Virus record (IMG/VR): IMGVR_UViG_2703718815_000003
Origin: a virus
Lineage: Duplodnaviria; Heunggongvirae; Uroviricota; Caudoviricetes
DNA: 64,000 nt
Strand: one strand, 5' to 3'
Shown piece by piece: positions 23,476 to 41,969 of the stretch. The translations under genes were made by a program, and so were the position numbers. Within the stretch, counting starts at the first letter, position 1, and every line of letters begins with the position of its first letter. The notes below the pieces were generated by a model, which searched no databases, was not told where the DNA came from, and worked only from the letters and a program-made list of their open reading frames with translations.

Positions 23476-23742
23476 TTACATCACCAGTAACTTCGCTTTG
23501 GCTCGACCTAAAGTGGTTAACCCAAGAGTCCGGCGGTGATAGCGATTGTCACTGCGTTGGCGCGTATGCCCTTTCTCCACCAGCCCCTTTTTTATCAGAG
23601 CGCGAATTGAGAACTGGATACTTTGCTTGGTTGTCTTGTACGGCAAAACTTCAAGCAATTCGTCCAGATCAAGTAGATGACCTCGCTCATAACCGAGATT
23701 GAGCGTTTTGATGATGTCCTTTTGTTTGTCGGTTAACGTCAT
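23476..23742 (-). CDS. small basic DNA-binding protein (wHTH/RHH-like, candidate regulator or antitoxin)
   Basis: 88 aa, basic C-terminus; last gene of accessory operon, 10 nt after GNAT stop. Confidence 0.4.
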   Translation of the reverse strand: MTLTDKQKDIIKTLNLGYERGHLLDLDELLEVLPYKTTKQSIQFSIRALIKKGLVEKGHTRQRSDNRYHRRTLGLTTLGRAKAKLLVM

Positions 23743-23751
23743 GGCAAATCC

Positions 23752-24642
23752 TTATGCCGGTAAAGCAATTTCTAACGGTTTATCCAAAGGTTGTTTGTCG
23801 AATGCCAGCAGTGGCAACGTGTCAGGCAGTCGACGGCCAAAGTCAGGGTTTCGGTACACACCATACAACGGAGACGTAAAGCTCAGGTTGTGAATGTCCT
23901 TGAGCAGCTTCACAATGCTGGCCTCGTCCACCAGACTGTCGGCAATGTCCTGAATCGTCGTGCCACGATTCCGCCCAGCTTTTGCCAGGGAACTGTTCTT
24001 GTGGTAGTCCGCCACCAGATCACGCAGTGCACGGCGACGACGAGACTCGCTCATTGCGAACAACTCTTTGACGATCGCCTCGTTATCACCCGGGTCGGAA
24101 CGGAAATGGCGCTGGAATACACGCAGTGCACTTTCATAGCTCTTCGGTCGCTCAGGGCGGATGAACTTAAACCCTGCTTTCATGGCGAAGGGATTGTATT
24201 TGCTCATCGAGGACTGGATCTCAATGATTGGCCGGTCATGCATCCTGCTAACCAGGTTAATCATTCGATAAGAGACGCCTACGCCACGATACTGAGTATC
24301 CACAACTGAGCGACTGATCACCGCAAAGTTGTTATTCACGTACCGACCCCAGTACTGGTTAGCCACGGTGGTATTAGTGGTTGGTTTCAACTTAGGAAAC
24401 ATGCGGTGGCGAGGTGCCAGCAGTAGTTTCGGGTAAGCCATAACCACGACGCCCACCAGACGGTCATCAAGTTCGCAGCGATAGTAAGTTGGCGCGAAAG
24501 GTTTGCCGTCTGTTTTGTAGTGAAGCGACTTAAGAGCGTACCAGTCCTCTACAGTTCCCTTTGTGACAGTCATTCGCTCCAGAAAGTCCAGATGACGCGG
24601 AAACTCTTCAGGGCGGTAGCGTTTAATGATGATGTCCGTCAT
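23752..24642 (-). CDS. GNAT-family acetyltransferase-like protein with N- and C-terminal extensions
   Basis: Motif VVDTQYRGVGVSYRMINLV resembles the GNAT acetyl-CoA motif (Q/R-x-x-G-x-G/A); start overlaps ATPase stop. Confidence 0.5.
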   Translation of the reverse strand: MTDIIIKRYRPEEFPRHLDFLERMTVTKGTVEDWYALKSLHYKTDGKPFAPTYYRCELDDRLVGVVVMAYPKLLLAPRHRMFPKLKPTTNTTVANQYWGRYVNNNFAVISRSVVDTQYRGVGVSYRMINLVSRMHDRPIIEIQSSMSKYNPFAMKAGFKFIRPERPKSYESALRVFQRHFRSDPGDNEAIVKELFAMSESRRRRALRDLVADYHKNSSLAKAGRNRGTTIQDIADSLVDEASIVKLLKDIHNLSFTSPLYGVYRNPDFGRRLPDTLPLLAFDKQPLDKPLEIALPA

Positions 24643-25304
24643 GAATGGACCTCATCATGACTACCATTGTGATATTCCACCTTCACGCGTTCTTTGTAGT
24701 GCTTGGTGATCTGCATATCCGGGCGCAGCGCGTTCTTCAGGTCTTCGTGAGTCGTCGCCACCATTACCGTCGCACCAACCTTTCGAGCGGCACGCTGGAG
24801 GTTAGATGCCACAACCTGAGCGGTTACACGGTCGAGAACAGCGCCGAACTCGTCAGCAGCCCACACTTTAGCGCCTGACTCAATCAGTTTGGCAATCTTG
24901 AGACGATATTTCTGACCGTCTGACATTTCAGAAGGCTTGCGAACAAACAGATATGCATCGTTCAGACCAGCCATAGATAACAACCCAAGCGCATCACTGG
25001 TAGTTTTGCCCAGTTGGTCAATGACGTTAACCTCATTATCGAAGGTAAAATCATCGATGGAGGCCACAGATAGCCCTTCATCCTTCATCTGGTGTTGCAG
25101 CTCGCGCAGCACAACGGATTTGCCGGAACCGGATTGGCCGGTAATGTACACCACATCGCCCTGCTTCACTTCCAGCTCCAGATTGTCGTAAAGCGTCCAC
25201 TCTTTTTCGTCCAGGCCAAGCCCGAACGACTCAGCGATTTCCAACGTGCGCGTGGTTTTATTTACGCGTGTCTGAAACGATACGTTGATGATGTATTTGC
25301 TCAT
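24639..25304 (-). CDS. ABC-type P-loop ATPase (stand-alone nucleotide-binding domain)
   Basis: Walker A GQSGSGKS, signature-like SDGQKYRL, Walker B VWAADEFGAVLD; 221 aa with no transmembrane partner nearby. Confidence 0.6.
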   Translation of the reverse strand: MSKYIINVSFQTRVNKTTRTLEIAESFGLGLDEKEWTLYDNLELEVKQGDVVYITGQSGSGKSVVLRELQHQMKDEGLSVASIDDFTFDNEVNVIDQLGKTTSDALGLLSMAGLNDAYLFVRKPSEMSDGQKYRLKIAKLIESGAKVWAADEFGAVLDRVTAQVVASNLQRAARKVGATVMVATTHEDLKNALRPDMQITKHYKERVKVEYHNGSHDEVHS

Positions 25305-25969
25305 GCAGCCATCTCCCCGGAAGAGATCTTCTCCGCATATGCCACAAATGCGTCTACCCCGCTTTCTCCCGTCATTTCTTCCATGTGGGCAAGCAAATCA
25401 CCAACAACAATGGCAGAGCCAGCAGGGAGCGTTTTAAAGCCCAATACGTCGACAACACGTACTTCTTCCGCTGCAACTTCACGACTGATCTCGGTGTGTT
25501 CATCCTTCTGTCGTTTAGTTTCTTCGCCAAGATCGATAACTAGCGAGTCGGTGTCCATTTCTTCTGTCATGCTGCCAACGAGAACATTCAACTCACGCTC
25601 TTCAAAGCCGAAAACCTCGATATCGTCCAGAACAAGCGACTCAAGCTCTTTCTGTAGCTTAATTGCATCGTAATCAATGCTGGCAAGTCGGTTATCTTCA
25701 AGGCGCTTCGCACGAATCTCGTCATCACTGAGATCATCGCGAACAATAACCGGTACGCGCTCAAGTCCAGCAAAAATTGCAGCCTCACGGCGGCCGTGGC
25801 CAGTAATAATTACGTCGTTCTTATCGACCGTAATTGGCTGGTCAAATCCGCGCTTTTTAATGGCTGCGGCTAGATCTCGGATCTGCTGTTCATCATGCTT
25901 TTTGGCATTCATCTCATAGGGAATAAGATCTGCCGGGTCGCGATATACGATTTCAAACTTTTTGGTCAT
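25301..25969 (-). CDS. ParB/Srx-fold (ParB N-terminal domain) protein 1
   Basis: GHGRREAA matches ParB box II (GERRxRA); start ATG 25967-25969 overlaps upstream stop (TAATG). Confidence 0.7.
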   Translation of the reverse strand: MTKKFEIVYRDPADLIPYEMNAKKHDEQQIRDLAAAIKKRGFDQPITVDKNDVIITGHGRREAAIFAGLERVPVIVRDDLSDDEIRAKRLEDNRLASIDYDAIKLQKELESLVLDDIEVFGFEERELNVLVGSMTEEMDTDSLVIDLGEETKRQKDEHTEISREVAAEEVRVVDVLGFKTLPAGSAIVVGDLLAHMEEMTGESGVDAFVAYAEKISSGEMAA

Positions 25970-26649
25970 TACATACGCTCCTTGTAGTAGTCGACCAGCC
26001 ACACCAGAGCCTCACCAGCGTTCTCCATTTCATTACCGGTGTTAATAGCCTGCTCTTTGATGATGTTTTTTATGGTTTCTGCAACGCGATCTGACGCATC
26101 GAAAGTTACTTTGAAGCGCATGGTCTGATGTTCCGCCCCCACACGTTCGGTTTTCTCTCGTTTGTCGGTATCGACAGGCTCATCACTACCACGAGACAAC
26201 GCCTCCAGTGCTTCAAGGTCGATTGCCGCCTCTTTTGCTATAACCATCGAGATTTCGTCGTCATACGGGGCGATTTCAGACAGTTGATAGTCAAGTTCTG
26301 ACTGAATTTCTTCAATGAAGCGTTGCAATGCGATTTGGTCGTCTTCACCGTATCGCTCGTTGTCCACCAGTGACATCTGTTTAGCTACGACATCGCTAAT
26401 TTTGCCCACAGAAAGCACTGGAACCGTTGAAATTCCTTGCTCAATAGCGGCACGCCAGCGATGTTCGCCGCCGAGGATTTCAAAAAATCCATCTTCAAGT
26501 TCACGAGCCAAAATTGGCTTAAAAAAGCCCAATTTTTCGATAGAACCTTTCAGTTTTTCAAAATTCTGCGCACCAACCGAATTGGTGTTCCAGGTATTCG
26601 GGCGAAGGTTGGCAACATCAACCTGCAAAATCGTGATTTTTACATCCAT
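25969..26649 (-). CDS. ParB/Srx-fold (ParB N-terminal domain) protein 2
   Basis: LGGEHRWRAA matches ParB box II; first ATG at 26647-26649 (track start is GTG). Confidence 0.7.
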   Translation of the reverse strand: MDVKITILQVDVANLRPNTWNTNSVGAQNFEKLKGSIEKLGFFKPILARELEDGFFEILGGEHRWRAAIEQGISTVPVLSVGKISDVVAKQMSLVDNERYGEDDQIALQRFIEEIQSELDYQLSEIAPYDDEISMVIAKEAAIDLEALEALSRGSDEPVDTDKREKTERVGAEHQTMRFKVTFDASDRVAETIKNIIKEQAINTGNEMENAGEALVWLVDYYKERM

Positions 26650-26666
26650 TTTATTGCTACAATCCA

Positions 26667-26694
26667 CTAAGTAATCACTTACTTACTATAATAG
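26667..26694. promoter_or_regulatory. palindromic TAAGTA...TACTTA motif in divergent promoter region
   Basis: ctaagtaatcacttacttactataatag between the divergent ParB operon and helicase gene. Confidence 0.4.
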
Positions 26695-29838: not shown

Positions 29839-30453
29839 TTGGATTATCATGATATGAAAATGAAACTTTCGTTACTCCTTGCTTGTATATACCTCCCGGC
29901 GTTTTCCGCCAACGCATTATCAGATTTCGTCTATGACATGCAAAAAACGTACAGCATGTTTACCTCCGAAGACGTAGTAGAATACAAATCACGAGGTCTG
30001 AATCAGCCAGTTTGGTTCAGATTCTCAGACAACGCAGAAGAAACAATACTTAATGGAGGAAAAGAAAGATTACGGTTGCAAATTAACGGGACCGCTGTAC
30101 CAGAAAACGTTAATGTAAGCTCTGACGAAGCCATGAAGCCATCTGGAATTGTTTTAGAAGTTCAAGACGGCACACTTTACTGTGATGAAATGGCTACAAC
30201 AGGTTGCCAAGTAAACATTAGGGTTGGCAATGAAGAGCCTATCGTTACTTACGCCAAGGCTGAAGGGAATACAAGTGGAAAGGTATTGTTTATCGATGAA
30301 AATATCTCAAAACGTATCGTTCGTGACATACAGAAAACAGCTAACTCTAAATCCGTCGATAAAAAAATCTATGTTGAGGTTCCCTTCTTTGTCGTTGGTA
30401 ACAAAGAATTTAAATTTGGGTTGCTGAAAACACCTCTAAGAGTATCAGAATGA
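29839..30453 (+). CDS. predicted secreted protein
   Basis: N-terminal signal-peptide-like MKMKLSLLLACIYLPAFSANA; exact start uncertain (ATGs at 29839, 29854, 29860). Confidence 0.5.
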   Translation: MDYHDMKMKLSLLLACIYLPAFSANALSDFVYDMQKTYSMFTSEDVVEYKSRGLNQPVWFRFSDNAEETILNGGKERLRLQINGTAVPENVNVSSDEAMKPSGIVLEVQDGTLYCDEMATTGCQVNIRVGNEEPIVTYAKAEGNTSGKVLFIDENISKRIVRDIQKTANSKSVDKKIYVEVPFFVVGNKEFKFGLLKTPLRVSE

Positions 30454-30974
30454 GAACATTGGACATCACCTACGGCATACCGGCTGAAGTCTGGCCGCGA
30501 GACTACGAACATGCTGAGAACATACTTATGTTCTGGCGGAAGAACAACATTCCTGTAAGAGTCACGCTTGAAGACGGTCAGGTGTTTTGCATGTACGTTC
30601 AGGGGACAATGCCTTCACGCAATAAGCTAGATTTATGCCCGATTCCATATGATAAAGAAAATCGTATAAGACTCCCACTTGAGCGCATTAGCACAATTGA
30701 ATCAGGTGTAATCGATGGCATTGCTCGCGAGTTCAAAGGTAGGCTAACAATACATCCAGACTATGTTGACAATCAGCCATCACGCCGTGACTTTTTTGCG
30801 ATATGTCGCAAGGCTTATCAAAACGACCAATCTATAAGGGTCTACATGACAGACGGTCGTGAAATAGAAGGGGTGTCAAGAGGCGTTGATGCTTGCCAGG
30901 TCACTCTTAAGTTAGAAGACGGCAGAAAAATACTTGTTTTCTTCGATTGGGTTGAACGAATCCTTCCATTTTAA
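30450..30974 (+). CDS. hypothetical protein
   Basis: 174-aa ORF overlapping previous stop. Confidence 0.5.
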   Translation: MRTLDITYGIPAEVWPRDYEHAENILMFWRKNNIPVRVTLEDGQVFCMYVQGTMPSRNKLDLCPIPYDKENRIRLPLERISTIESGVIDGIAREFKGRLTIHPDYVDNQPSRRDFFAICRKAYQNDQSIRVYMTDGREIEGVSRGVDACQVTLKLEDGRKILVFFDWVERILPF

Positions 30975-31268: not shown

Positions 31269-31919
31269 ATGGCTAACATTATCATTTCTAAAAAGTCCAT
31301 CATTGAAGCTGCTGCCATTGTATCCGACGAGCTGCGCGAAAAAGCAGATCTGGCAACTCAAACATATAACGAACATTATAAAAATGGTACGCACACAAAA
31401 GCAGACAAAGCAAATATGCAAGCTGCAACCACCAAACTTGCTTACTTCATCAACAACGTCGTAAACGCAGTAGAAGACGAAAAATTATGCTCTGTTTTCT
31501 ACTATGCGATCAAAGCAAGTAAACAAGCGCCAGAAGTATTTTTCCGTGATGCAATGACTAATAGTTATTCACTGGAAAAACTGGTTTATCTGGTTAAATC
31601 CATTAAAGCTGGTAAATGTGTTTATTCCGTCGCTGATATGTCAGGATCTCGTGTGTTCGCTTTAATCGATATGATTAACGACGAGATCGACACGTTCACC
31701 AATGGCGCTGTTTTCGATTTAATGAATGAAGCTAAAAAAGCGTGCGAAATTAAATTGGACGCTGGCTATACTCAAGCCAACCAGCTTATCAATCTTTGCG
31801 AACGTCTTGGACTTGTTGAGAAAGTCAAAGGAATGGGAAGCGCAAAAGCTGGTACGCAGCAATATCGCTTTATTAAAAATGATTTCTATAACTATCTGGC
31901 TGATGCTTTCAAAGCGTAA
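31269..31919 (+). CDS. hypothetical protein
   Basis: AAGGA 8 nt upstream of ATG 31269; 216 aa. Confidence 0.55.
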   Translation: MANIIISKKSIIEAAAIVSDELREKADLATQTYNEHYKNGTHTKADKANMQAATTKLAYFINNVVNAVEDEKLCSVFYYAIKASKQAPEVFFRDAMTNSYSLEKLVYLVKSIKAGKCVYSVADMSGSRVFALIDMINDEIDTFTNGAVFDLMNEAKKACEIKLDAGYTQANQLINLCERLGLVEKVKGMGSAKAGTQQYRFIKNDFYNYLADAFKA

Positions 31920-31932
31920 TTAATGGAATCTG

Positions 31933-31953
31933 GCGCCCACTATGGGCGCTTTT
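31933..31953 (+). terminator. intrinsic terminator (GCGCCCA cta TGGGCGC + TTTT)
   Basis: Perfect 7-bp GC stem followed by T-run. Confidence 0.6.
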
Positions 31954-31966
31954 AAGGAGCTTAATC

Positions 31967-32197
31967 ATGTTTATTCTTATCGCTGGCGTTAACGTGCGCA
32001 ATGAATATTTTGTTAATCGCATCGCTGGGATCGCTGGTTACGCTGGGCGCGCAGTCGAGCTTATAGATGAAACGACGCGCAAAATTGACTTATTGAGCGA
32101 CCAGGAGCGAAAAAAAGCAGACGTGAATGACGCTGATATATTTTTAATGTTAAAAGCGTTTGTAGAAATGGGATTTGAAATCAGTTTACATAAATAA
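31967..32197 (+). CDS. hypothetical small protein
   Basis: AAGGAG 7 nt upstream; 76 aa; bracketed by two identical terminator hairpins. Confidence 0.5.
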   Translation: MFILIAGVNVRNEYFVNRIAGIAGYAGRAVELIDETTRKIDLLSDQERKKADVNDADIFLMLKAFVEMGFEISLHK

Positions 32198-32203
32198 AAT
32201 CGA

Positions 32204-32226
32204 GCGCCCACTATGGGCGCTTTTTT
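32204..32226 (+). terminator. intrinsic terminator, same hairpin as 31933
   Basis: GCGCCCA cta TGGGCGC + TTTTTT. Confidence 0.6.
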
Positions 32227-32229
32227 CGT

Positions 32230-32680
32230 TTCCAATACTCCCACCATAACGCGCCATCATTAGCGCGTTTTTTATTGTCTTTGACTCACACCAACAACAT
32301 AAAAATAAGCGCCAAAATAACGCCATAGACGCGCTTTTATATCCTTACCAGTACATACCCATTACTTAGCGCATTAACGCGCTTAAATCGCGTTATATTG
32401 CGTTATGGTGTATGGTTAATCATTGGTTTTTATTCTTGCTATGTGATCCGCGTTTAATTGTCGGCGCGGATCGGCATTTTGTTTTGTTCCGTATCCGCTC
32501 GCGTATTATGTGCGCGTGATTTTTCACATAATCACACCACTTAATCACATATGTGATTACGCTACGAAAGAAATCTGGATGTCTCAGGCGACGAAAGTCA
32601 TCATAATTTTCCCCGCTCACCTGTCCGACAACCGCTGGTTGGATTCCACCAGCTTCCCGATGTTTTTTCTATATAAAGGC
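32230..32680. other. structured non-coding region with multiple GCGC-based hairpins and palindrome atcacatatgtgat
   Basis: No convincing ORF; several short inverted repeats (aacgcgcc..gcgcgtt, gatccgcg..cgcggatc). Confidence 0.4.
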
Positions 32681-32810
32681 GAATGCAGCCGTTTCCCGAA
32701 AAAATCCTGGCCGTTTCCCGTCGGCTCATGAATGCGTTCCTCGCCGTTTCTGAAAATTTCCCTGCGGCAGCTGGTGGCTATAGAGAAAGGGCCGTTTCTG
32801 GCCCTCTTCT
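32680..32810. repeat. iteron-like direct repeats, cluster 1 (core GCCGTTTCC/GCCGTTTCT)
   Basis: At least 4 copies: cagccgtttcccgaaaaa, ggccgtttcccgtcgg, cgccgtttctgaaaat, ggccgtttctggcc. Confidence 0.5.
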
Positions 32811-32813
32811 CAG

Positions 32814-33296
32814 TTACACGCCATCAAGGATGTGGATGCGGTTGCTTGCGTATACATTCAGCATAAAGTTAGCGCAAAACAGTTTCCATGTGTCAACGCC
32901 AGCGGTATACGTAATGTTTTTGCATTTAATCGCATTGTTGGCGATCCGCATCCCCTGCGATACTGCTTCATCGTCGGAAAATTTGAACGACGATTGAGTT
33001 TTAATCCAGACAGAAATCTGCGTAGCGAACTCAATCAGCTTGGACTGGCAGAATCGCCCGGAGCGCACCGGAAAGACGAACGTTCCGAACCCAGAATTTA
33101 CCACATACGCTTTCTCAAATACCCGCGAGTAACGACGATTGCCAATGATGTCGCGTGCAATAATGCATTTTTCTTGTGCTGACAGTTCTACCGTCTCATT
33201 GTCGCGCCATGCACCAAGTACTCGTTTTTCAATGTCAGAGAACGTTACAGCGATATTGCCATGTGCGGGTGCGTTTACAGTAGCGATAAAATTCAT
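32814..33296 (-). CDS. hypothetical protein
   Basis: 160 aa; ATG preceded by early promoter/operator motif and AGGA. Confidence 0.5.
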   Translation of the reverse strand: MNFIATVNAPAHGNIAVTFSDIEKRVLGAWRDNETVELSAQEKCIIARDIIGNRRYSRVFEKAYVVNSGFGTFVFPVRSGRFCQSKLIEFATQISVWIKTQSSFKFSDDEAVSQGMRIANNAIKCKNITYTAGVDTWKLFCANFMLNVYASNRIHILDGV

Positions 33297-33302
33297 GATT
33301 AA

Positions 33303-33345
33303 TTCCTTATCGTAAATAACAAATTGTTTTCTTGTTGGTGTTAAT
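33303..33345 (-). promoter_or_regulatory. early promoter/operator motif (GATAAT..CACCAAC.AGAAAACAA.TTGTT)
   Basis: Minus-sense cgataattaacaccaacaagaaaacaatttgttatt about 20 nt upstream of ATG. Confidence 0.45.
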
Positions 33346-33500
33346 TATCGTTGTACGAATAAGGCGTCAAAGTGGAAAGTTGCGGTAGCCGGACGGGAAC
33401 AGGTGGGTTTGTCGGTTGCCTGGAGGTAAGAGGTTGGTGTTTTTAGCCTGCGGGAAACAGGATGGTCATTTAAGGCCACCAGCATTGGTGGCCTTAATCT

Positions 33501-33782
33501 TTAGTGGAGCAGACCGATGTCGATGGTATCCCCTGAATCATCCACACGGATCATCAGCATGGCAAAGGCGTTTAGTGGATAGCTTGCGTGCCATTCAGGG
33601 AAGCGGTCATCTCGCATGAAGTCGGCAATGTCGTAAACGCATCCCTCAAAGTGGAAGAATCGCGTGCTTACCTGCTCGTCATAATCCACATGATCCATTT
33701 CTTGCTGTTCTGTTTCCGGCAAGTCCAGCCATGATTCAAGGAATACATTTTGTGCTTTAGGGGTAATGGTGAAATCAGTCAT
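33501..33782 (-). CDS. hypothetical acidic protein
   Basis: Start set to ATG 33780-33782 with GAGGA upstream; motif copy upstream at about 33795-33835. Confidence 0.5.
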   Translation of the reverse strand: MTDFTITPKAQNVFLESWLDLPETEQQEMDHVDYDEQVSTRFFHFEGCVYDIADFMRDDRFPEWHASYPLNAFAMLMIRVDDSGDTIDIGLLH

Positions 33783-34117
33783 GAGCATATCCTCACTGCG
33801 TAAACATATTGTTTTCTTGTTGGTGTAATTATCGCAGTGTAGATAAGGCATAAAAGAAGTTAATACAGGCTGAATACACAAGAAAGGTTCTGGAAGTTGA
33901 TAGCCAGGTTTCAAACTAACCTTCGGTTATTAAAAGTCATTTAAGACCACCAATGCTGGTGGCCTTAATAATTATCGCCCGATTACGCTAAGGATCTTTT
34001 CCTCAACTGATTTGTTGTTGCGACTAAACTGCCTTGCGTATCTGATGACAGAAGAGGCGTTTCGCTTTCTGACCATCTCGGCTCTCTCCTTCAGGCGTTT
34101 CTTGAAATCGCCCATAT

Positions 34118-34492
34118 TTACCACCAGGCGCAGAAGGTCAGTCTGTTATTGTGAAAGTCGTGGTTCTTAATCAGATCTTCCACAAGCTCTTTCAACTCCC
34201 CCACATCATGCCAGTAACCTTCATCGTACTCCTGACTGCCGAAGAAAAAACCTTCCCGGGTAGGCAAGTACTCTTCGCAATTACTTTCGTTTATGTGCAT
34301 CAAATGAGCCTTCAGAAAACAAATGTCATTCATCGTTAATTCTAAAAGCTCACAATTTTCGACTTCACCTACGTTGCGCTCCATCCACCCAACGAGCGCA
34401 TTGAACTTACGGAAGTAAGCAACCTGCTTTCTGGATGCCTCGTTATTCAGATCGTTTTTAGGCTGTGTCTCGATATAGATATCAAGTCCCAT
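34118..34492 (-). CDS. hypothetical protein
   Basis: Start ATG 34490-34492 with AAGGA upstream. Confidence 0.5.
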   Translation of the reverse strand: MGLDIYIETQPKNDLNNEASRKQVAYFRKFNALVGWMERNVGEVENCELLELTMNDICFLKAHLMHINESNCEEYLPTREGFFFGSQEYDEGYWHDVGELKELVEDLIKNHDFHNNRLTFCAWW

Positions 34493-34609
34493 GATGGTTT
34501 CCTTATTAAGTTGCTTCAGTGAAATCATTTTCACAAATCAGATAAGGCAGAAAACAAATTGTTATCGGGCATAAGAAAATGGCGCGGTTTACGCGCCATT
34601 CAAAGAGGA

Positions 34610-35005
34610 TTAAGCGAATACGCTTTCAGGGATTAAGGTGTCAGCAGGAATGCCAGAGGTAATGCGCAGGCCGTACTGACCAATCCAGGTAGTGTTGGTA
34701 TTCAGGTTGGAGGCGAATACGGTGTTAACCATATTCATCATGGTTTCAAACACCTCTTCATCAACCTGGCGGAAGTAGTTCTCGATTTTCAGCAGCAGCG
34801 GGTCAGTTGCATCGAGAATGGACTGGTATTGAGTCGCGTACTCGCCGCCGGAGGCATCACCTTTACGCACGATCGTACTGGCCTGGACTTCGGCACCAGT
34901 TTCGGTGTTGTGCGTAACAACGGTGATTTTTGCCACATTCTTACCTTCGGCGGTTTCAGAGGCATAGTAAACATCAACTGTCAGTTTTTCGCGTTTAACG
35001 GTCAT
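34610..35005 (-). CDS. hypothetical protein
   Basis: Start ATG 35003-35005 with GGAGAG upstream; 131 aa. Confidence 0.5.
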   Translation of the reverse strand: MTVKREKLTVDVYYASETAEGKNVAKITVVTHNTETGAEVQASTIVRKGDASGGEYATQYQSILDATDPLLLKIENYFRQVDEEVFETMMNMVNTVFASNLNTNTTWIGQYGLRITSGIPADTLIPESVFA

Positions 35006-35131
35006 TTCACTCTCCGTAGTGTTTTGGTTATTTTTATATTCTATGATAGTAAGTATGTACTTACAATACAAAAAAGCCCCGTAAGGATGGCGGGGCTGTC
35101 GTACTGTCGACTAATTGCCACTTGCACATTA

Positions 35132-35443
35132 TCAGGCTATTGCCATCACTGATGCTCTCTGAATCTCTTGCTGGGCCACGCGGTTAACTTCCATCAAAGC
35201 CAGTTCGAGCTGATGTTCCGGCCACATTCTTTGAAATGCCACCCAGCCTTTTCCACGCTGGCGACGAACATTCATTACATAACGAGTAAAGGTGTTTTTA
35301 TCGAAAGATACCGCTGTTTCACGGAACAGACGAATAGAGGTTCCATTGGCAACGATGTCCAGCAAAGTTAATTGAGCAACCAGCGCAGGCTTCTCTTTTC
35401 TCTTCTGGTCTTTGTCCAGACCAAGAACCAATGATTTTTTCAT
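35132..35443 (-). CDS. hypothetical basic protein
   Basis: Start ATG at 35443 downstream of motif gagaaaacaagttgtttacggag. Confidence 0.5.
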   Translation of the reverse strand: MKKSLVLGLDKDQKRKEKPALVAQLTLLDIVANGTSIRLFRETAVSFDKNTFTRYVMNVRRQRGKGWVAFQRMWPEHQLELALMEVNRVAQQEIQRASVMAIA

Positions 35444-35596
35444 TACAACTCCGTAAACAACTTGTTTTCTCAATGGCGTAAATAATACCAGTAAGAAAAC
35501 GGCTACAAAGCATATTGATCAGGCGCATGAGCGATATGCAGGTTCTTCCCTGCGGCTATAGAGAAATTAAGCCAGCAATGCTGGCTTTGGTTGGGG

Positions 35597-35926
35597 TTAC
35601 TCGAATACTTCAAGAAACTCCTGAACGTCCCAATGCTGGACGAGGTGAAGATAGACCTTAGAAATCACGTCATTTTCGCTATCGCATGTGAAGTAGTACT
35701 TCTGGCTGCGGTTGTATGTGTCCACACAAAATTCGCTCATATCCATAAAGTCAGCATCTTCACCCATGTCGCAAATCATCAAAGCAGGTGCGTCATCACG
35801 AGTCATCAGCTCAAGCACCCACCGCGAATTGATCAGAGTGGAAGACCAACCTTCTAACTCATAAAACTGATCAAACTCTTTTTGAGTTAATTTCTTGATT
35901 TGGTTGATGTCGATATTTGCAAACAT
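35597..35926 (-). CDS. hypothetical acidic protein
   Basis: ATG 35924-35926 with AAGGA; motif aacaagttgttt immediately upstream (track start is TTG). Confidence 0.5.
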   Translation of the reverse strand: MFANIDINQIKKLTQKEFDQFYELEGWSSTLINSRWVLELMTRDDAPALMICDMGEDADFMDMSEFCVDTYNRSQKYYFTCDSENDVISKVYLHLVQHWDVQEFLEVFE

Positions 35927-36279
35927 AAAGCAATCCTTAAACAACTTGTTTTCTCGTTGGTGTTATTATCGCAATAACGCACAGGCGAAAAAGGATTTTA
36001 TTCCGGTGAATGTTGTTTTGGCAGTGAGTTTTCAGGTTCAGTATCGAGTACACTTTTTACATTATTCTGATTTAGTGGCCGAAGGTGGCTGGTGGCAGAG
36101 TAATCCTCTCCCCAAAAACCTACTGAAATCGATTGTGCCCCGTTGGCTGTCTGGCACAATTACGCTGTAGCTGGGCATTCAGAGGGAATCCAGCGGTAAG
36201 CAAGTCCGCCTACGTGAGCGCCTCTCTTCTTCCCGCACATTACAGGTGGGTAGCCGCAACTCTCCCTCTCGCTATACCG

Positions 36280-36430
36280 GTACGCCGCCGTTCCTGAACC
36301 GGCATCGAGCCTTCTCCCGAAATCCACACAGGCAACTCGACCGTTTCCCTGAAAACCTCCAGCCGTTCCCCGAAGGCAACCCAGCCGTTTCTGTAGCGGG
36401 ATGCAACCTTTTCCCTGTATGGACCGAAGG
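36280..36430. repeat. iteron-like direct repeats, cluster 2
   Basis: gccgttcctgaacc, gaccgtttccctgaaaa, agccgttccccgaagg, agccgtttctgtagc, aaccttttccctg. Confidence 0.5.
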
Positions 36431-36599
36431 CTGACCGTAGGGGTTTTACGGGGGATAAAATCAGGAGTTGAATAAATACGAAAAAGGAGGCGACACCCCT
36501 CCTTCCCTCCCCACTTATACATACCTGGCTTCTTCGCTATACATGTTGTGTTTTATCTGTCTCAACCTCTCTATAGGCGTTAATGCTCACTCCTTCCAG

Positions 36600-37330
36600 A
36601 ATGTTCTATACGGCGACTATTTCTGTTGGTGAATTGGGTGTGTTGTTCTCTCTGTCGGTGTATGTGGTTTCGTTCGTTTTGCGGTGGTTCTTCTATGGGG
36701 TGTTCTCGTCGTTTTGGTGATTGTTCTTCTCCGTGTATGGAGTAATGGCAGGTGGGCGATTCCTTTCGTTGTTGTGTTTGAGTTGTTTGTCTGGAGTGTG
36801 TGAAAGGCTTTTGTAGTTATTCGTGTATTGGGTAATGGCATTTCCCGTGATTGTTATGTTTCGTGTCTTTTGGGATTGAGAGAATCCTTGCGGTTACAGG
36901 CTTCGTTGGGGTTTCAGTGATTCTGGTGTTTCTTCGCTGTTTGGGGAATGGCGTGTCGTGGGTATCGCGCGTATGAATGTTTTCGGATTGCCTGTGAAAG
37001 TTAGGTTGGTTGTCCGGTAGCCTGGGGAGAAGAGGTGGGTTGTTTTTGGAAATGGCATGTGTGTTATTTAGTTGTTTTGTTATGCCTGAAAATAAGTTGT
37101 TTATATGGTTGTGTAACGCAACGGGAGCGATTTTGAGCGTGTGTTTTTGTTGGTAGTGTGTTGGGTCGTCTGTGGTGAAAATTGGACGCTGTGGCGCTGT
37201 CTGCTGCGTAGAGTTGCGGGTATAAGAAGTGATGTGTGAAAACGTCAATTTTTTAGACCAAATCGGGTGAAAGCGTTGACGTTTCGTTGATCTGTTATTT
37301 AGTTGTTTTCTTATTTGTATAAACAACCAT
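36600..37330. repeat. GT-skewed (plus strand) degenerate tandem repeat tract, unit about 90-100 bp
   Basis: Plus strand almost entirely G+T; units end in g(a/g)gtaATGGCA / ggaaATGGCA at about 36743, 36833, 36943, 37043. Confidence 0.5.
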
Positions 37331-37436
37331 AACCTATTGATATTTAAGGGTATGATTGCAGGTATGGAAGGGGAGTAGTGGCGATCAACGGATTCTTATA
37401 GAAAAGAATCAAATTGTGACCGCCATTATCAATGTT

Positions 37437-38677: not shown

Positions 38678-40711
38678 TTACTTAACTTGGTGGCCTGGTT
38701 TAGCACCAGCATCCGGGCTTAACAGGAAGATATCTTTTCCGCCAGGGCCAGCAGCCATCACCATGCCTTCGGAGATACCGAAGCGCATTTTACGCGGTGC
38801 CAGGTTAGCCACCATAATGGTGTGACGACCAATCAGTGCCTGTGGGTCTGGATAAGCAGAACGGATGCCTGAGAAGACATTGCGTTTTTCACCGCCGAGA
38901 TCCAGCGTCAGGCGCAGCAGTTTGTCAGAACCTTCAACAAACTCTGCGTTTTCGATCAGTGCCACGCGCAGGTCAACTTTGGCAAAGTCGTCAAAGGTGA
39001 TGGTTTCCTGAATCGGGTCGTCTGCCAGCGGGCCAGTAACTGGCGCGGCAGCTGCTTTCACTTCTTCTTTGGATGCTTCCACCAGTGCTTCAACCTGCTT
39101 CATATCGATGCGGTTATACAGTGCCTTGAACGGATTCACTTTATGGCCCAGCAGCGGTTGCTGGATACCATCCCAGGTCAGTTCTGTATTCAGGAATGCT
39201 TCTGCACGTTCAGTCAGTTTCGGCAGTACCGGCTTCAGGTACGTCATCAGCACGCGGAACAGGTTAATGCCCATAGAGCAAATCGCCTGCAGATCGGCAT
39301 CGCGTCCTTCCTGCTTCGCCACCACCCACGGAGCCTGTTCATCGACATAGCGGTTAGCCAGGTCAGCCAATGCCATGATTTCACGGATAGCTTTACCAAA
39401 TTCACGGCTTTCCCATGCTTCGCCAATCACTTCAGCGGCATCAGTAAAGGTTTTGTACAGTTGCGGGTCAGCCAGTTCGCTTGCCAGCACGCCGTCAAAA
39501 CGCTTGTTGATAAAGCCTGCATTACGGGAGGCCAGGTTAACCACTTTGTTCACGATATCGGCATTCACGCGCTGAACGAAATCCTCCAGGTTGAGATCGA
39601 TATCATCAATGCGCGAAGAGAGTTTCGCAGTGTAGTAGTAACGCAGGCTGTCAGCGTCAAAATGATTCAGCCAGGTGCTGGCTTTAATAAAGGTGCCGCG
39701 AGACTTGGACATCTTCGCGCCGTTCACCGTCACATAGCCGTGAACAAACAGGTTGGTCGGCTTGCGGAAGTTGCTGCCTTCCAGCATGGCAGGCCAGAAC
39801 AGGCTGTGGAAGTAAACAATATCTTTACCGATGAAGTGGTACAGCTCGGCGGTGGAGTCTTTCTTCCAGTATTCATCGAAGCTGGTGGTATCGCCGCGCT
39901 TGTCGCACAGATTCTTGAAGGAACCCATGTAGCCAATCGGCGCGTCCAGCCAGACGTAGAAATATTTGCCCGGCGCGTTCGGAATTTCAAAACCGAAGTA
40001 GGGCGCATCTCGGGAGATATCCCACTGTTGCAGGCCGGATTCAAACCATTCCTGCATTTTGTTCGCCACCTGCTCCTGCAACGCGCCGCTGCGGGTCCAT
40101 GCCTGCAACATTTCGCTGAAAGAAGGCAGATCAAAGAAGAAGTGTTCGGAATCACGCATTACCGGGGTAGCGCCAGAAACCACCGATTTCGGCTCGATCA
40201 ATTCAGTCGGGCTATATGTTGCGCCGCAGACTTCACAGTTATCGCCGTATTGATCTGGCGCTTTACATTTCGGGCAGGTGCCTTTTACAAAACGATCCGG
40301 CAGGAACATGCCTTTTTCCGGGTCGTACAACTGAGAGATAGTGCGGTTTTTAATAAAACCGTTCTCTTTCAGGCGAGTATAGATAAGCTCAGACAACTGA
40401 CGGTTCTCTTCGCTGTGCGTCGAGTGATAGTTGTCATAGCTGATGTTAAAGCCTGCGAAATCAGTCTGGTGTTCCTGACTCATTTCGCCAATCATCTGCT
40501 CCGGTGTGATACCAAGCTGCTGTGCTTTCAGCATGATCGGCGTACCGTGGGCATCGTCGGCACAGATGAAATTAACCTCGTGGCCGCGCATTCGCTGGTA
40601 ACGAACCCAGACATCAGCCTGGATGTGCTCCAGCATATGGCCGAGGTGGATTGAGCCGTTAGCGTACGGCAGCGCGCACGTCACCAGAATTTTCTTCGCG
40701 ACTTGGGTCAT
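38678..40711 (-). CDS. metG: methionyl-tRNA synthetase (host-type MetG)
   Basis: 677 aa from [26 protein letters not shown]; class I motifs SIHLGH and KMSKS, CPKC/CEVC zinc knuckle, C-terminal tRNA-binding domain. Matches enterobacterial MetG as I recall it, not verified by search. Confidence 0.95.
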
Positions 40712-40868
40712 AGTAGGCATTACTTCTTTGTAGTGAAAAGGGGCTTGATAGTAACAAAATGGCCTTATGTCTGCCATGTGATAACAGCATTTCTCATAAA
40801 TGATTAAATGTCGTAGCTGGAGTACACTACAAGGCGACAATTGCGCAAATTAAAATAAAGGAGACGGG

Positions 40869-41969
40869 ATGAGCGAGTCCAAATCGCCGGATGCCCTGAG
40901 AGCAATGGTAGCCGGTACGCTGGCTAATTTTCAGCACCCAACCCTGAAACACAACCTGACTACGCTTAAAGCGTTACACCATGTTGCGTTGATGGATGAC
41001 ACACTGCATGTCGAACTAATCATGCCTTTCGTGTGGAATAAGCCTTTTGAAGACCTGAAAGAGCAATGTAGTGGTGATCTGCTCCGTATCACTGGCGCAA
41101 AGGCTATTGACTGGAAGCTGTCGTACAACATTGCCACGCTTAAGCGCGTCAAAAACCAACCAGGCATTAATGGCGTTAAGAACATTATCGCCGTCAGCTC
41201 AGGCAAGGGCGGCGTGGGTAAATCCTCCACGGCGGTAAACCTGGCACTGGCGTTGGCTGCTGAAGGTGCGAAAGTTGGTATTTTGGATGCCGATATCTAT
41301 GGTCCATCAATTCCAACCATGCTGGGCGCGGAAAACCAACGTCCAACCTCACCTGACGGTACTCACATGGCACCTATCATGTCTCATGGCCTGGCAACCA
41401 ACTCTATTGGTTATCTGGTCACCGACGACAATGCAATGGTGTGGCGTGGACCGATGGCGAGCAAGGCGTTAATGCAGATGTTGCAGGAAACATTGTGGCC
41501 TGATCTGGACTATCTTGTTCTCGATATGCCGCCGGGCACTGGTGATATTCAGTTGACGCTGGCGCAGAACATTCCTGTAACTGGTGCTGTTGTGGTAACT
41601 ACGCCGCAAGACATCGCGCTGATCGATGCGAAGAAAGGCATTGTGATGTTCGAAAAAGTCGAAGTGCCGGTACTTGGTATCGTCGAAAACATGAGTGTGC
41701 ATATTTGCAGTAACTGCGGTCATCACGAGCCAATTTTTGGCACCGGTGGCGCAGAGAAACTGGCCGAGAAATACAACACGCAGTTGTTAGGCCAAATGCC
41801 ACTTCATATCTCTCTTCGTGAAGATCTGGATAACGGAACACCAACCGTTATTAGTCGTCCAGATAGTGAATTTACGGCTATTTATCGTGACCTCGCAGAT
41901 CGCGTTGCTGCCCAAATGTATTGGCAAGGTGAAGTAATACCTGGCGAAATCGCATTCCGCGCAGTGTGA
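40869..41969 (+). CDS. apbC: Fe-S cluster carrier ATPase ApbC/Mrp
   Basis: Mrp/NBP35 P-loop SSGKGGVGKS and CSNCGH motif; divergent from metG as in enterobacterial chromosomes. Confidence 0.95.
   Translation: MSESKSPDALRAMVAGTLANFQHPTLKHNLTTLKALHHVALMDDTLHVELIMPFVWNKPFEDLKEQCSGDLLRITGAKAIDWKLSYNIATLKRVKNQPGINGVKNIIAVSSGKGGVGKSSTAVNLALALAAEGAKVGILDADIYGPSIPTMLGAENQRPTSPDGTHMAPIMSHGLATNSIGYLVTDDNAMVWRGPMASKALMQMLQETLWPDLDYLVLDMPPGTGDIQLTLAQNIPVTGAVVVTTPQDIALIDAKKGIVMFEKVEVPVLGIVENMSVHICSNCGHHEPIFGTGGAEKLAEKYNTQLLGQMPLHISLREDLDNGTPTVISRPDSEFTAIYRDLADRVAAQMYWQGEVIPGEIAFRAV

Follow-up and report, generated by a model that had tools for sequence, protein, structure and literature searches.

We analysed a 64,000-nucleotide stretch of viral DNA (IMG/VR record IMGVR_UViG_2703718815_000003, hereafter the window), in which two clusters of short direct repeats, array 1 (32685..32765, + strand) and array 2 (36284..36425, + strand), bracket a cassette of small genes. 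Comparison with known elements identifies the window as part of an SSU5/pHCM2/pMT1-type phage-plasmid (SSU5/pLF82 type), and the 4.5-kb region of the locus is 97.9% identical, over its full length, to plasmid pLF82 of Escherichia coli LF82 (phage Cyrano). This region matches 735 plasmids in PLSDB, from Klebsiella, Escherichia, Enterobacter, Yersinia, Salmonella, Citrobacter and Cronobacter. Among 5426 complete E. coli genomes, 239 carry the DNA of array 1, in each case on plasmids, and at the sensitivity of BLAST it was found on the chromosome in none of the 5426. The arrays are an undescribed cis-element of iteron type in a well-known and widespread phage-plasmid family.

Array 2 consists of six 22-bp units, which start at 36284, 36306, 36337, 36359, 36381 and 36403 (spacing of 22, 31, 22, 22 and 22 bp) and have their cores at 36288, 36310, 36341, 36363, 36385 and 36407. 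Array 1 has three strong 22-bp units, starting at 32685, 32707 and 32740 (spacing of 22 and 33 bp) with cores CCGTTTCCC/CCGTTTCTG at 32689, 32711 and 32744, plus weak half-phase copies near 32734 and 32755. Both arrays have the 9-base core CCGTTTCCC and the 22-bp phase, with every unit on the + strand; they are tandem direct repeats in helical phase, in 3 + 6 copies, as is typical of iterons. The iteron-like clusters that an earlier note on this DNA had described are thus real and lie where it placed them, with unit counts and edges now refined. The information content of the unit is concentrated in CC(A/T)G-CCGTTTCCC, and in the repeat proposed by that note, GCCGTT(T)C(C/T)...GAA, the core holds, whereas the trailing GAA is conserved in part only. 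The counts of four to six repeats per cluster were right for array 2, with its six units, but not for array 1, where three units are strong and the supposed fourth, last copy (GCCGTTTC at 32791) sits in the loop and stem of a hairpin. This hairpin (32779..32808, - strand; GGGCC-gtttct-GGCCC), read from the sequence and conserved in relatives, is the terminator-like hairpin of the gene p160, and the GCCGTTTC copy is probably a terminator rather than a binding unit. We read the two arrays as phased, iteron-type sites that would be bound on the same face by a sequence-specific DNA-binding protein.

The clustering goes beyond chance. The motif GCCGTTYC is present in 10 copies in the 64 kb, against 3.6 expected, and seven of the ten lie inside the two ~130-bp clusters. 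Three adjacent pairs at 21-23 bp were observed, and only one out of 300 Markov simulations produced any. A position weight matrix was built from the units and used to scan the window together with pLF82 1-40000 and 86000-108379 (the genome is ~108 kb); it returned nine sites with a score of at least 16, all of them in the two arrays and on the + strand, and no comparable site elsewhere in the genome, including the surroundings of repA. There are no IHF sites at the arrays. The Chi sequence (GCTGGTGG) is abundant throughout the window (18 copies in 64 kb), and several copies fall within terminator hairpins or adjoin the arrays, at 32770-32777 (+), 32646-32653 (-), 33476-33483 (-), 33955-33962 (+) and 36088-36095 (+); we rejected them as a meaningful feature, given that their conservation and orientation are inconsistent across lineages.

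Both arrays, with the same orientation and phase, are found in SSU5, three Klebsiella phage-plasmids, further E. coli elements, Citrobacter, two Enterobacter, pHCM2 and Cronobacter, and the phasing of array 2 in SSU5 is identical to that in the window. Elements of Salmonella, Klebsiella, Enterobacter, Citrobacter, Cronobacter and E. coli all carry the pair, and in the 45 loci where both arrays were detected they co-occur in the same orientation. A search of IMG/VR with a two-unit pattern gave 66 loci, 63 of which belong to this same phage-plasmid family and carry the arrays; the other three are about the number expected by chance, by a rough estimate. Relatives gain or lose units as entire 22-bp blocks, and the distance between the arrays (1.48-4.22 kb) is set by the number of small genes that lie between them. 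Column conservation over 11 lineages is 0.98 for the core, 0.87 for the spacer and 0.77 for the flank in array 1, and 0.85, 0.71 and 0.57, respectively, in array 2.

This conservation extends to very distant relatives. The K. pneumoniae plasmid OW968253.1, which is of another replicon type and has a median protein identity of 52% to our element, has the same array layout and the same core, with p160 33% and p103 46-51% identical. An IMG/VR contig of ~40% GC also shares this layout and core; its array-1 analogue is made of five tandem 33-bp units, each formed by a strong and a weak copy, and in the examined parts of this contig homologues of p160 and p103 were undetected. Two deeply diverged lineages, with proteins that are only 31-51% identical, have an identical core; this core is unchanged in every lineage found and shows no co-variation with the proteins encoded nearby. 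In Yersinia pestis pMT1, array 1 is kept and the cassette beyond that point is truncated next to a copy of IS1541. In pMT1 (L082 4856-5314) this IS1541 copy (IS200/IS605 family) takes the place of the remaining cassette; p160, p93 and array 1 are retained, SbcCD-like genes follow directly past the insertion sequence, and array 2 was not found. An unrelated high-GC viral contig (L034 1540-1660, IMG/VR 3300046714_000194) has about five copies of ACCGTTTCCC, including the palindrome CGTTTCCCGGGAAACG, just downstream of a gene that by eye resembles an AAA_25/RepA-like helicase (P-loop GAAGAGK); the similarity of its core to ours is probably coincidental.

Between the arrays lie two core genes and a variable set of others, all on the - strand. 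The first core gene, p160 (32814..33296), is always between the arrays in the main and OW968253.1 lineages and encodes a protein with an isoelectric point (pI) of 9.2 and no known fold. The second, p103 (35132..35443), encodes a basic protein (pI 10.5) of orphan fold, modelled as a four-stranded beta-sheet and a long helix at the C-terminus, with a basic tail that is disordered. These two are the sole genes that are always found between the arrays, and the sole matches in the shortest versions of the cassette. The accessory small genes (33501-33782, 33972-34124, 34118-34492, 34610-35005 and 35597-35926) occupy the span 33501..35926, which includes p103. Only p160 and p103 are basic among the cassette proteins, the five accessory proteins that were scored (a 50-aa open reading frame was excluded) having a pI of 4.1-4.7. 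The cassette proteins match only PHROGs of unknown function, with no match in Pfam, in NCBIfam or, for those scanned, in PADLOC.

The small genes are preceded by repeated promoter blocks with the palindrome AACAAnTTGTT, at 33318-33372, 33802-33856, 34527-34580, 35456-35510 and 35940-35994, the last to the right of the accessory span, and terminator-like hairpins lie between several of the genes. In these promoter/leader blocks a -10 element, GATAAT, is followed by ACACCAAC-AAGAAAACAA-nTTGTT; the copy at 34549 is inverted and lies upstream of its promoter, and the motif is also present at 37062-37083 and 37293-37314. The palindrome is likely a common operator, or else an (ARN)n-type RNA leader. 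Because the promoter blocks share this palindromic box, the cassette fits a set of repressor-controlled early genes.

The DNA to the left of array 1 (32198..32684) is non-coding and rich in hairpins, with terminator-like hairpins on both strands, which bears out the ~450 bp of such DNA reported earlier in front of the first cluster. A conserved TTTCTA(C/T)ATAAAGGC box abuts the first array-1 unit, and the sole open reading frame of the region, a 50-aa PGAP call (~32579-32731), has no intact frame preserved in relatives. Over the 5.7-kb scan region, 16 terminator-like hairpins were counted against 6.4 expected. Two other motifs of the left region are partly conserved in relatives: about nine (A/T)A(A/G)CGCG-like copies in AT-rich DNA (32240-32410), and a 13-bp tandem repeat, CACATAATCACAC, in 1.9 copies (32525-32549).

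To the right of array 2, the ~1.5 kb before the next gene contains no RefSeq gene, and the open reading frames there have no family matches. Within this DNA lies a conserved, strand-asymmetric non-coding stretch (36510..37320, - strand; ~800 nt, no conserved open reading frame), present in all lineages, whose minus-strand RNA would be 40% A, 30% C, 14% G and 16% U. The GC skew reaches +0.53 and the AT skew -0.55, unmatched elsewhere in the window, and no RNA of the window is less foldable than this minus-strand one (-0.10 to -0.12 kcal/mol per nt; window mean -0.276, sd 0.039). The conserved block at 37219..37345 (- strand) is the predicted promoter of this G-poor RNA, with TTGACG-N17-TTATAC and an early-type -10 with a AAGAAAACAA box, as well as a back-to-back TTGACG on the + strand; its activity is suggested by the motifs and by the 11-lineage alignment. 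The predicted transcript would end at a terminator-like hairpin, GGGAAGGAGGGGTGTCGCCTCCTTTTT (36481..36507, - strand), ~55 bp before array 2 and conserved in relatives. The asymmetric stretch and the promoter block are kept in the OW968253.1 lineage, and a third lineage shows the asymmetry too. Rho prefers RNA that is C-rich, G-poor, unstructured and untranslated, and 36510-37320(-) is a candidate for a long unstructured non-coding RNA or a Rho-loading region.

The genes to the left of array 1 point rightwards (those of a UvsW-type helicase, an FljA-like protein and two unassigned proteins), whereas nearly all genes from 32814 onward to the right point leftwards, so that array 1 sits at a point of convergent transcription. 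The FljA-like protein, which is full-length (30450-30974, + strand; PF03614, repressor of phase-1 flagellin, E 9e-81), has its gene at this place, ~1.7 kb from array 1, throughout the lineages examined. The PF03614 family blocks translation of fliC mRNA, and possible targets of the protein here are the G-poor RNA or the shared leaders, which are rich in A and C. Further to the right, metG (methionyl-tRNA synthetase) and apbC/mrp are divergent at 38678-41969, in what looks like a captured host locus; the two genes are presumably also divergent on the E. coli chromosome.

A protein-coding role of the repeats themselves was rejected. The 22-bp period is not a multiple of 3, whole-unit insertions and deletions break any frame, and matches of the translated reading frames to relatives are fragmentary and overlapping. 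A reading frame at 36160-36522(-) is annotated in the Cyrano record, but not by RefSeq, and neither this frame nor the 50-aa PGAP frame over array 1 has a PHROG or Pfam match where tested. The arrays are considered non-coding because the gain and loss of whole 22-bp units breaks reading frames.

The earlier note had seen no obvious Rep-like initiator, and indeed no Rep gene is present in the window; the element's repA (RepFIB type) lies outside it, at pLF82 31-1086, ~70 kb from the arrays. This gene has iterons of its own, of the ATCCACTATAGAGAGC type, and a DnaA box on its flanks. At that distance, and with unrelated iterons, the arrays can be rejected as the RepA origin of the element. RepA is 51% identical between this lineage and OW968253.1, and its iterons are wholly different in the two (ATCCACTATAGAGAGC versus TATGCTGTCAGCGG). 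We found no gene for a winged-helix Rep initiator beside or between the arrays.

Two ParB-like proteins had also been noted ~7 kb away, and they are confirmed as ParB_N-domain proteins, encoded at 25301-26667, 6-7 kb to the left of the arrays. Both match PF02195 (ParB_N) only and have acidic C-terminal parts (pI 4.5-4.6), and no helix-turn-helix (HTH) domain was detected in either. Their genes are followed by those of two ABC-type ATPases, not of a ParA, in an operon upstream of the terminase genes. This operon (23476-26667, - strand) comprises the two ParB_N-only proteins, the two ABC-type ATPases and a basic 88-aa protein, lies directly upstream of the terminase genes, and its products are among the most conserved of the genome, with 67-86% identity to the lineage with the 52% median. 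With ParB_N as their only domain, no HTH detected and an acidic character, the two ParB-like proteins are unlikely binders of the arrays. The idea of a replication or partition locus stands as to the iteron-like nature of the arrays, and falls as to the plasmid origin, with a weak link to the ParB-like proteins. A parS-like or P1-type box site was also discarded, as the units are asymmetric direct repeats and not palindromes.

We tentatively favour, as a possibility, that the arrays are a phage-mode (lytic) replication origin, or a replication-control region, separate from the RepA/oriR replicon. This reading is preferred because of the 22-bp iteron geometry, the layout of genes flanked by iterons, the early-type control and the precedents of P1 and P4, because the element encodes a replisome of its own (DnaE, DnaB-like helicase, primase, ligase and UvsW-type helicase) with no phage replication initiator annotated on it, and because RepA/oriR is elsewhere, with different iterons. 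Units of 22 bp are the classic spacing of Rep-type iterons (F, P1, R6K, RK2, pPS10). In the F, P1 and RepFIB replicons, too, a gene has its own iterons on both sides, and the initiators of phages are usually products of early genes that contain or adjoin the origin. In a phage-mode origin, cooperative same-face binding would form two nucleoprotein complexes, one on each array, at the borders of the early (repressor-controlled) cassette; once the phage is induced, the phased sites would be occupied by p103 or p160, as an early basic protein, or else by some better conserved factor. The arrays may pair, looping out the intervening 1.5-4.2 kb, as do P4 ori-crr or the ori/inc iteron sets of plasmids, and the complex would then recruit the DnaB-like helicase, the primase and the Pol III alpha that the phage itself encodes. 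Transcriptional or R-loop activation could be added if the untranslated G-poor RNA next to the arrays is heavily transcribed. The arrays, with their phasing, uniqueness, conservation and surroundings, are observed; that a protein binds them, which protein this would be, the pairing of the arrays and the role in replication are what we infer here.

Several observations weigh against a phage-mode origin. Array 1, at a convergence point behind terminators, has a position more typical of a terminus or neutral zone. No conserved AT-rich unwinding element or DnaA box adjoins the arrays: the one relaxed DnaA box, at 32520, is not kept in SSU5, and there is no marked AT-rich segment beside either array. 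No initiator fold was recognised, and the core is invariant while p160 (33%) and p103 (46-51%) diverge and are undetected in one lineage. The searchable literature holds no experimental data on the locus.

The contrast with RepA, which changed its iterons completely at 51% identity, suggests that the invariant core is read by a binder more conserved than p160 or p103. Candidate readers are a host factor, the basic protein p88 (23476-23742), which is 78% conserved, and the conserved terminase/ABC-ATPase gene group. The sequence comparisons argue that the arrays, p160, p103 and the G-poor transcription unit are one deeply conserved module. In a bolder version, to which we give a rather low probability, the arrays, the two basic orphan-fold proteins and the ~800-nt G-poor RNA would constitute a control module of SSU5-type phage-plasmids that had not been described before, perhaps a phage-mode origin of a new kind, read by a host or highly conserved factor, and not by a co-evolving initiator, and the RNA could be a trap for Rho or an RNA-binding protein, or an R-loop activator.

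Among the other explanations, a transcriptional or architectural boundary is the one we take most seriously, although we doubt it: a regulator would polymerise on the arrays, and the early genes would thereby be insulated, silenced or looped (by a roadblock, by anti-readthrough or by a repression loop), while neither replication nor segregation would be involved. Read in the minus-strand (coding) sense, either array lies 20-55 bp past a terminator-like hairpin, and the arrays delimit exactly a hypervariable cassette, whose contents change among relatives as the arrays stay; the operator-like palindrome common to the cassette promoter blocks points to tight, coordinated control, and the arrays have no origin hallmarks. 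However, no promoter overlaps either array (the nearest one of the cassette lies ~290 bp downstream of array 2, and array 1 comes after the last gene), nine high-information sites in strict helical phase exceed what known roadblocks need, and the regulator is still a putative one. It is unlikely, in our view, that the arrays are centromere-like sites for partition or pairing in the plasmid state, N15-like and bound by the adaptor of a ParA-type ATPase or by another centromere-binding protein. The element does have such an ATPase (type Ib-like; Pfam MipZ/CbiA/ParA), encoded outside the window at pLF82 31385-32412 together with a 117-aa partner, and upstream of this operon there is neither a CCGTTTCCC unit nor any other visible repeat array, which leaves the operon with no assigned centromere; moreover, our arrays are in terminator-insulated intergenic DNA, array 1 is retained intact in Y. 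pestis pMT1, and iteron-type centromeres in two clusters are known (R1 parC, tubC). Yet the ParA operon is ~38 kb from the arrays, the ParB_N proteins 7 kb away are acidic and showed no HTH, as described above, and the arrays flank early lytic-type genes and not maintenance genes; centromere specificity, in addition, usually diverges among related plasmids, and here the core is identical across different replicon types.

Still less probable is that the arrays mark packaging boundaries, namely the edges of a direct terminal repeat, or are a terminase recognition region, with the cassette inside the terminal redundancy. The pre-early genes of T5 and the host-takeover genes of SPO1 lie in the terminal redundancy of virion DNA, and our arrays, in the same orientation, likewise enclose a block of small early genes, complete with terminator-like hairpins and repeats of a promoter block. 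No protein of the genome is better conserved than the large terminase (91% identity to the distant lineage), as would fit an invariant site, and the distant relatives of this terminase (~25% identity) include T5-like phages. This reading is opposed by the ~10 kb between terS/terL and the arrays, by the putative small terminase, which is acidic and 59% conserved, and by the records of the family, no phage record of which starts or ends at the arrays; the contig break points of small assemblies showed no consistent end there either. As for the repeats acting as RNA (a protein sponge or structured element), or being a chance or decaying repeat devoid of function, this is very improbable and largely refuted already. 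The minus-strand reading, GGGAAACGG, has GGA motifs, and the arrays are downstream of terminators that could leak; nevertheless, RNA folding does not exceed that of shuffled sequences on either strand (z of +0.77 and -0.16), Rfam gives no match over the arrays at the gathering threshold or at E<=1, and two of the nine units have no GGA, on which grounds a structured RNA or CsrA-type sponge was rejected. The conservation of core, phase and orientation over three deep lineages excludes chance.

Phage-plasmids of the SSU5/pHCM2/pMT1 type are common, and in the literature searched the switch from plasmid to lytic replication is undescribed. Searches on SSU5, Cyrano/LF82, iterons, origin, PhageTerm and terminal repeats returned nothing on this locus, and were equally empty as to virion termini or a lytic origin in the SSU5-type family. 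A conserved pair of phased arrays, unique in the genome and placed around an early cassette, gives a concrete handle on this switch and draws attention to an unusual candidate non-coding RNA in its neighbourhood. If their function is ordinary operator-type control, the value of the finding is mainly a better annotation of a widespread element.

The arrays share features with several known systems. With the dispersed centromeres of the linear phage-plasmid N15 they have in common cis sites far from the par genes, and with iteron-type centromeres (R1 parC, pBtoxis tubC) the clusters of repeats that build a nucleoprotein complex. The N15 sites, however, are palindromes bound by SopB, whereas ours are direct repeats, and the array core stays the same from one incompatibility type to another. 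The P1 lytic replicon (repL/oriL, with a repressor-controlled promoter) embodies a similar idea of a separate lytic replicon in a plasmid prophage, although no repL homology is found here. Our locus shares with this replicon and with the transcription/R-loop origins of the T4 type an early promoter region under repressor-type control beside a candidate cis site, and a UvsW-type helicase is encoded nearby. On the other hand, the transcribed stretch is G-poor and unstructured, and is not an AT-rich unwinding element, and T4 origins have no iteron arrays. In the satellite phage P4, ori and crr are also two clusters of one short motif, repeats for the alpha protein that are kb apart and both needed for replication; here, no homologue of the alpha-type primase-helicase is linked, the P4 repeats (TGTTCACC) are unrelated, and the spacing between clusters varies from 1.5 to 4.2 kb. 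The iteron plasmids and plasmid prophages (F ori2/incC, P1 incC-repA-incA, RepFIB, R6K, RK2, pPS10) differ from our locus in having an adjoining Rep/winged-helix gene and adjacent DnaA boxes or AT-rich 13-mers; in our arrays, moreover, ~9-13 of the 22 bp are conserved, the core does not co-vary with the neighbouring proteins, and the RepFIB-type replicon of the element is located elsewhere, with unrelated iterons. What the arrays share with these replicons is the ~22-bp phased direct repeats, the two same-orientation sets flanking a small block of genes, and the gain and loss of units as a whole.

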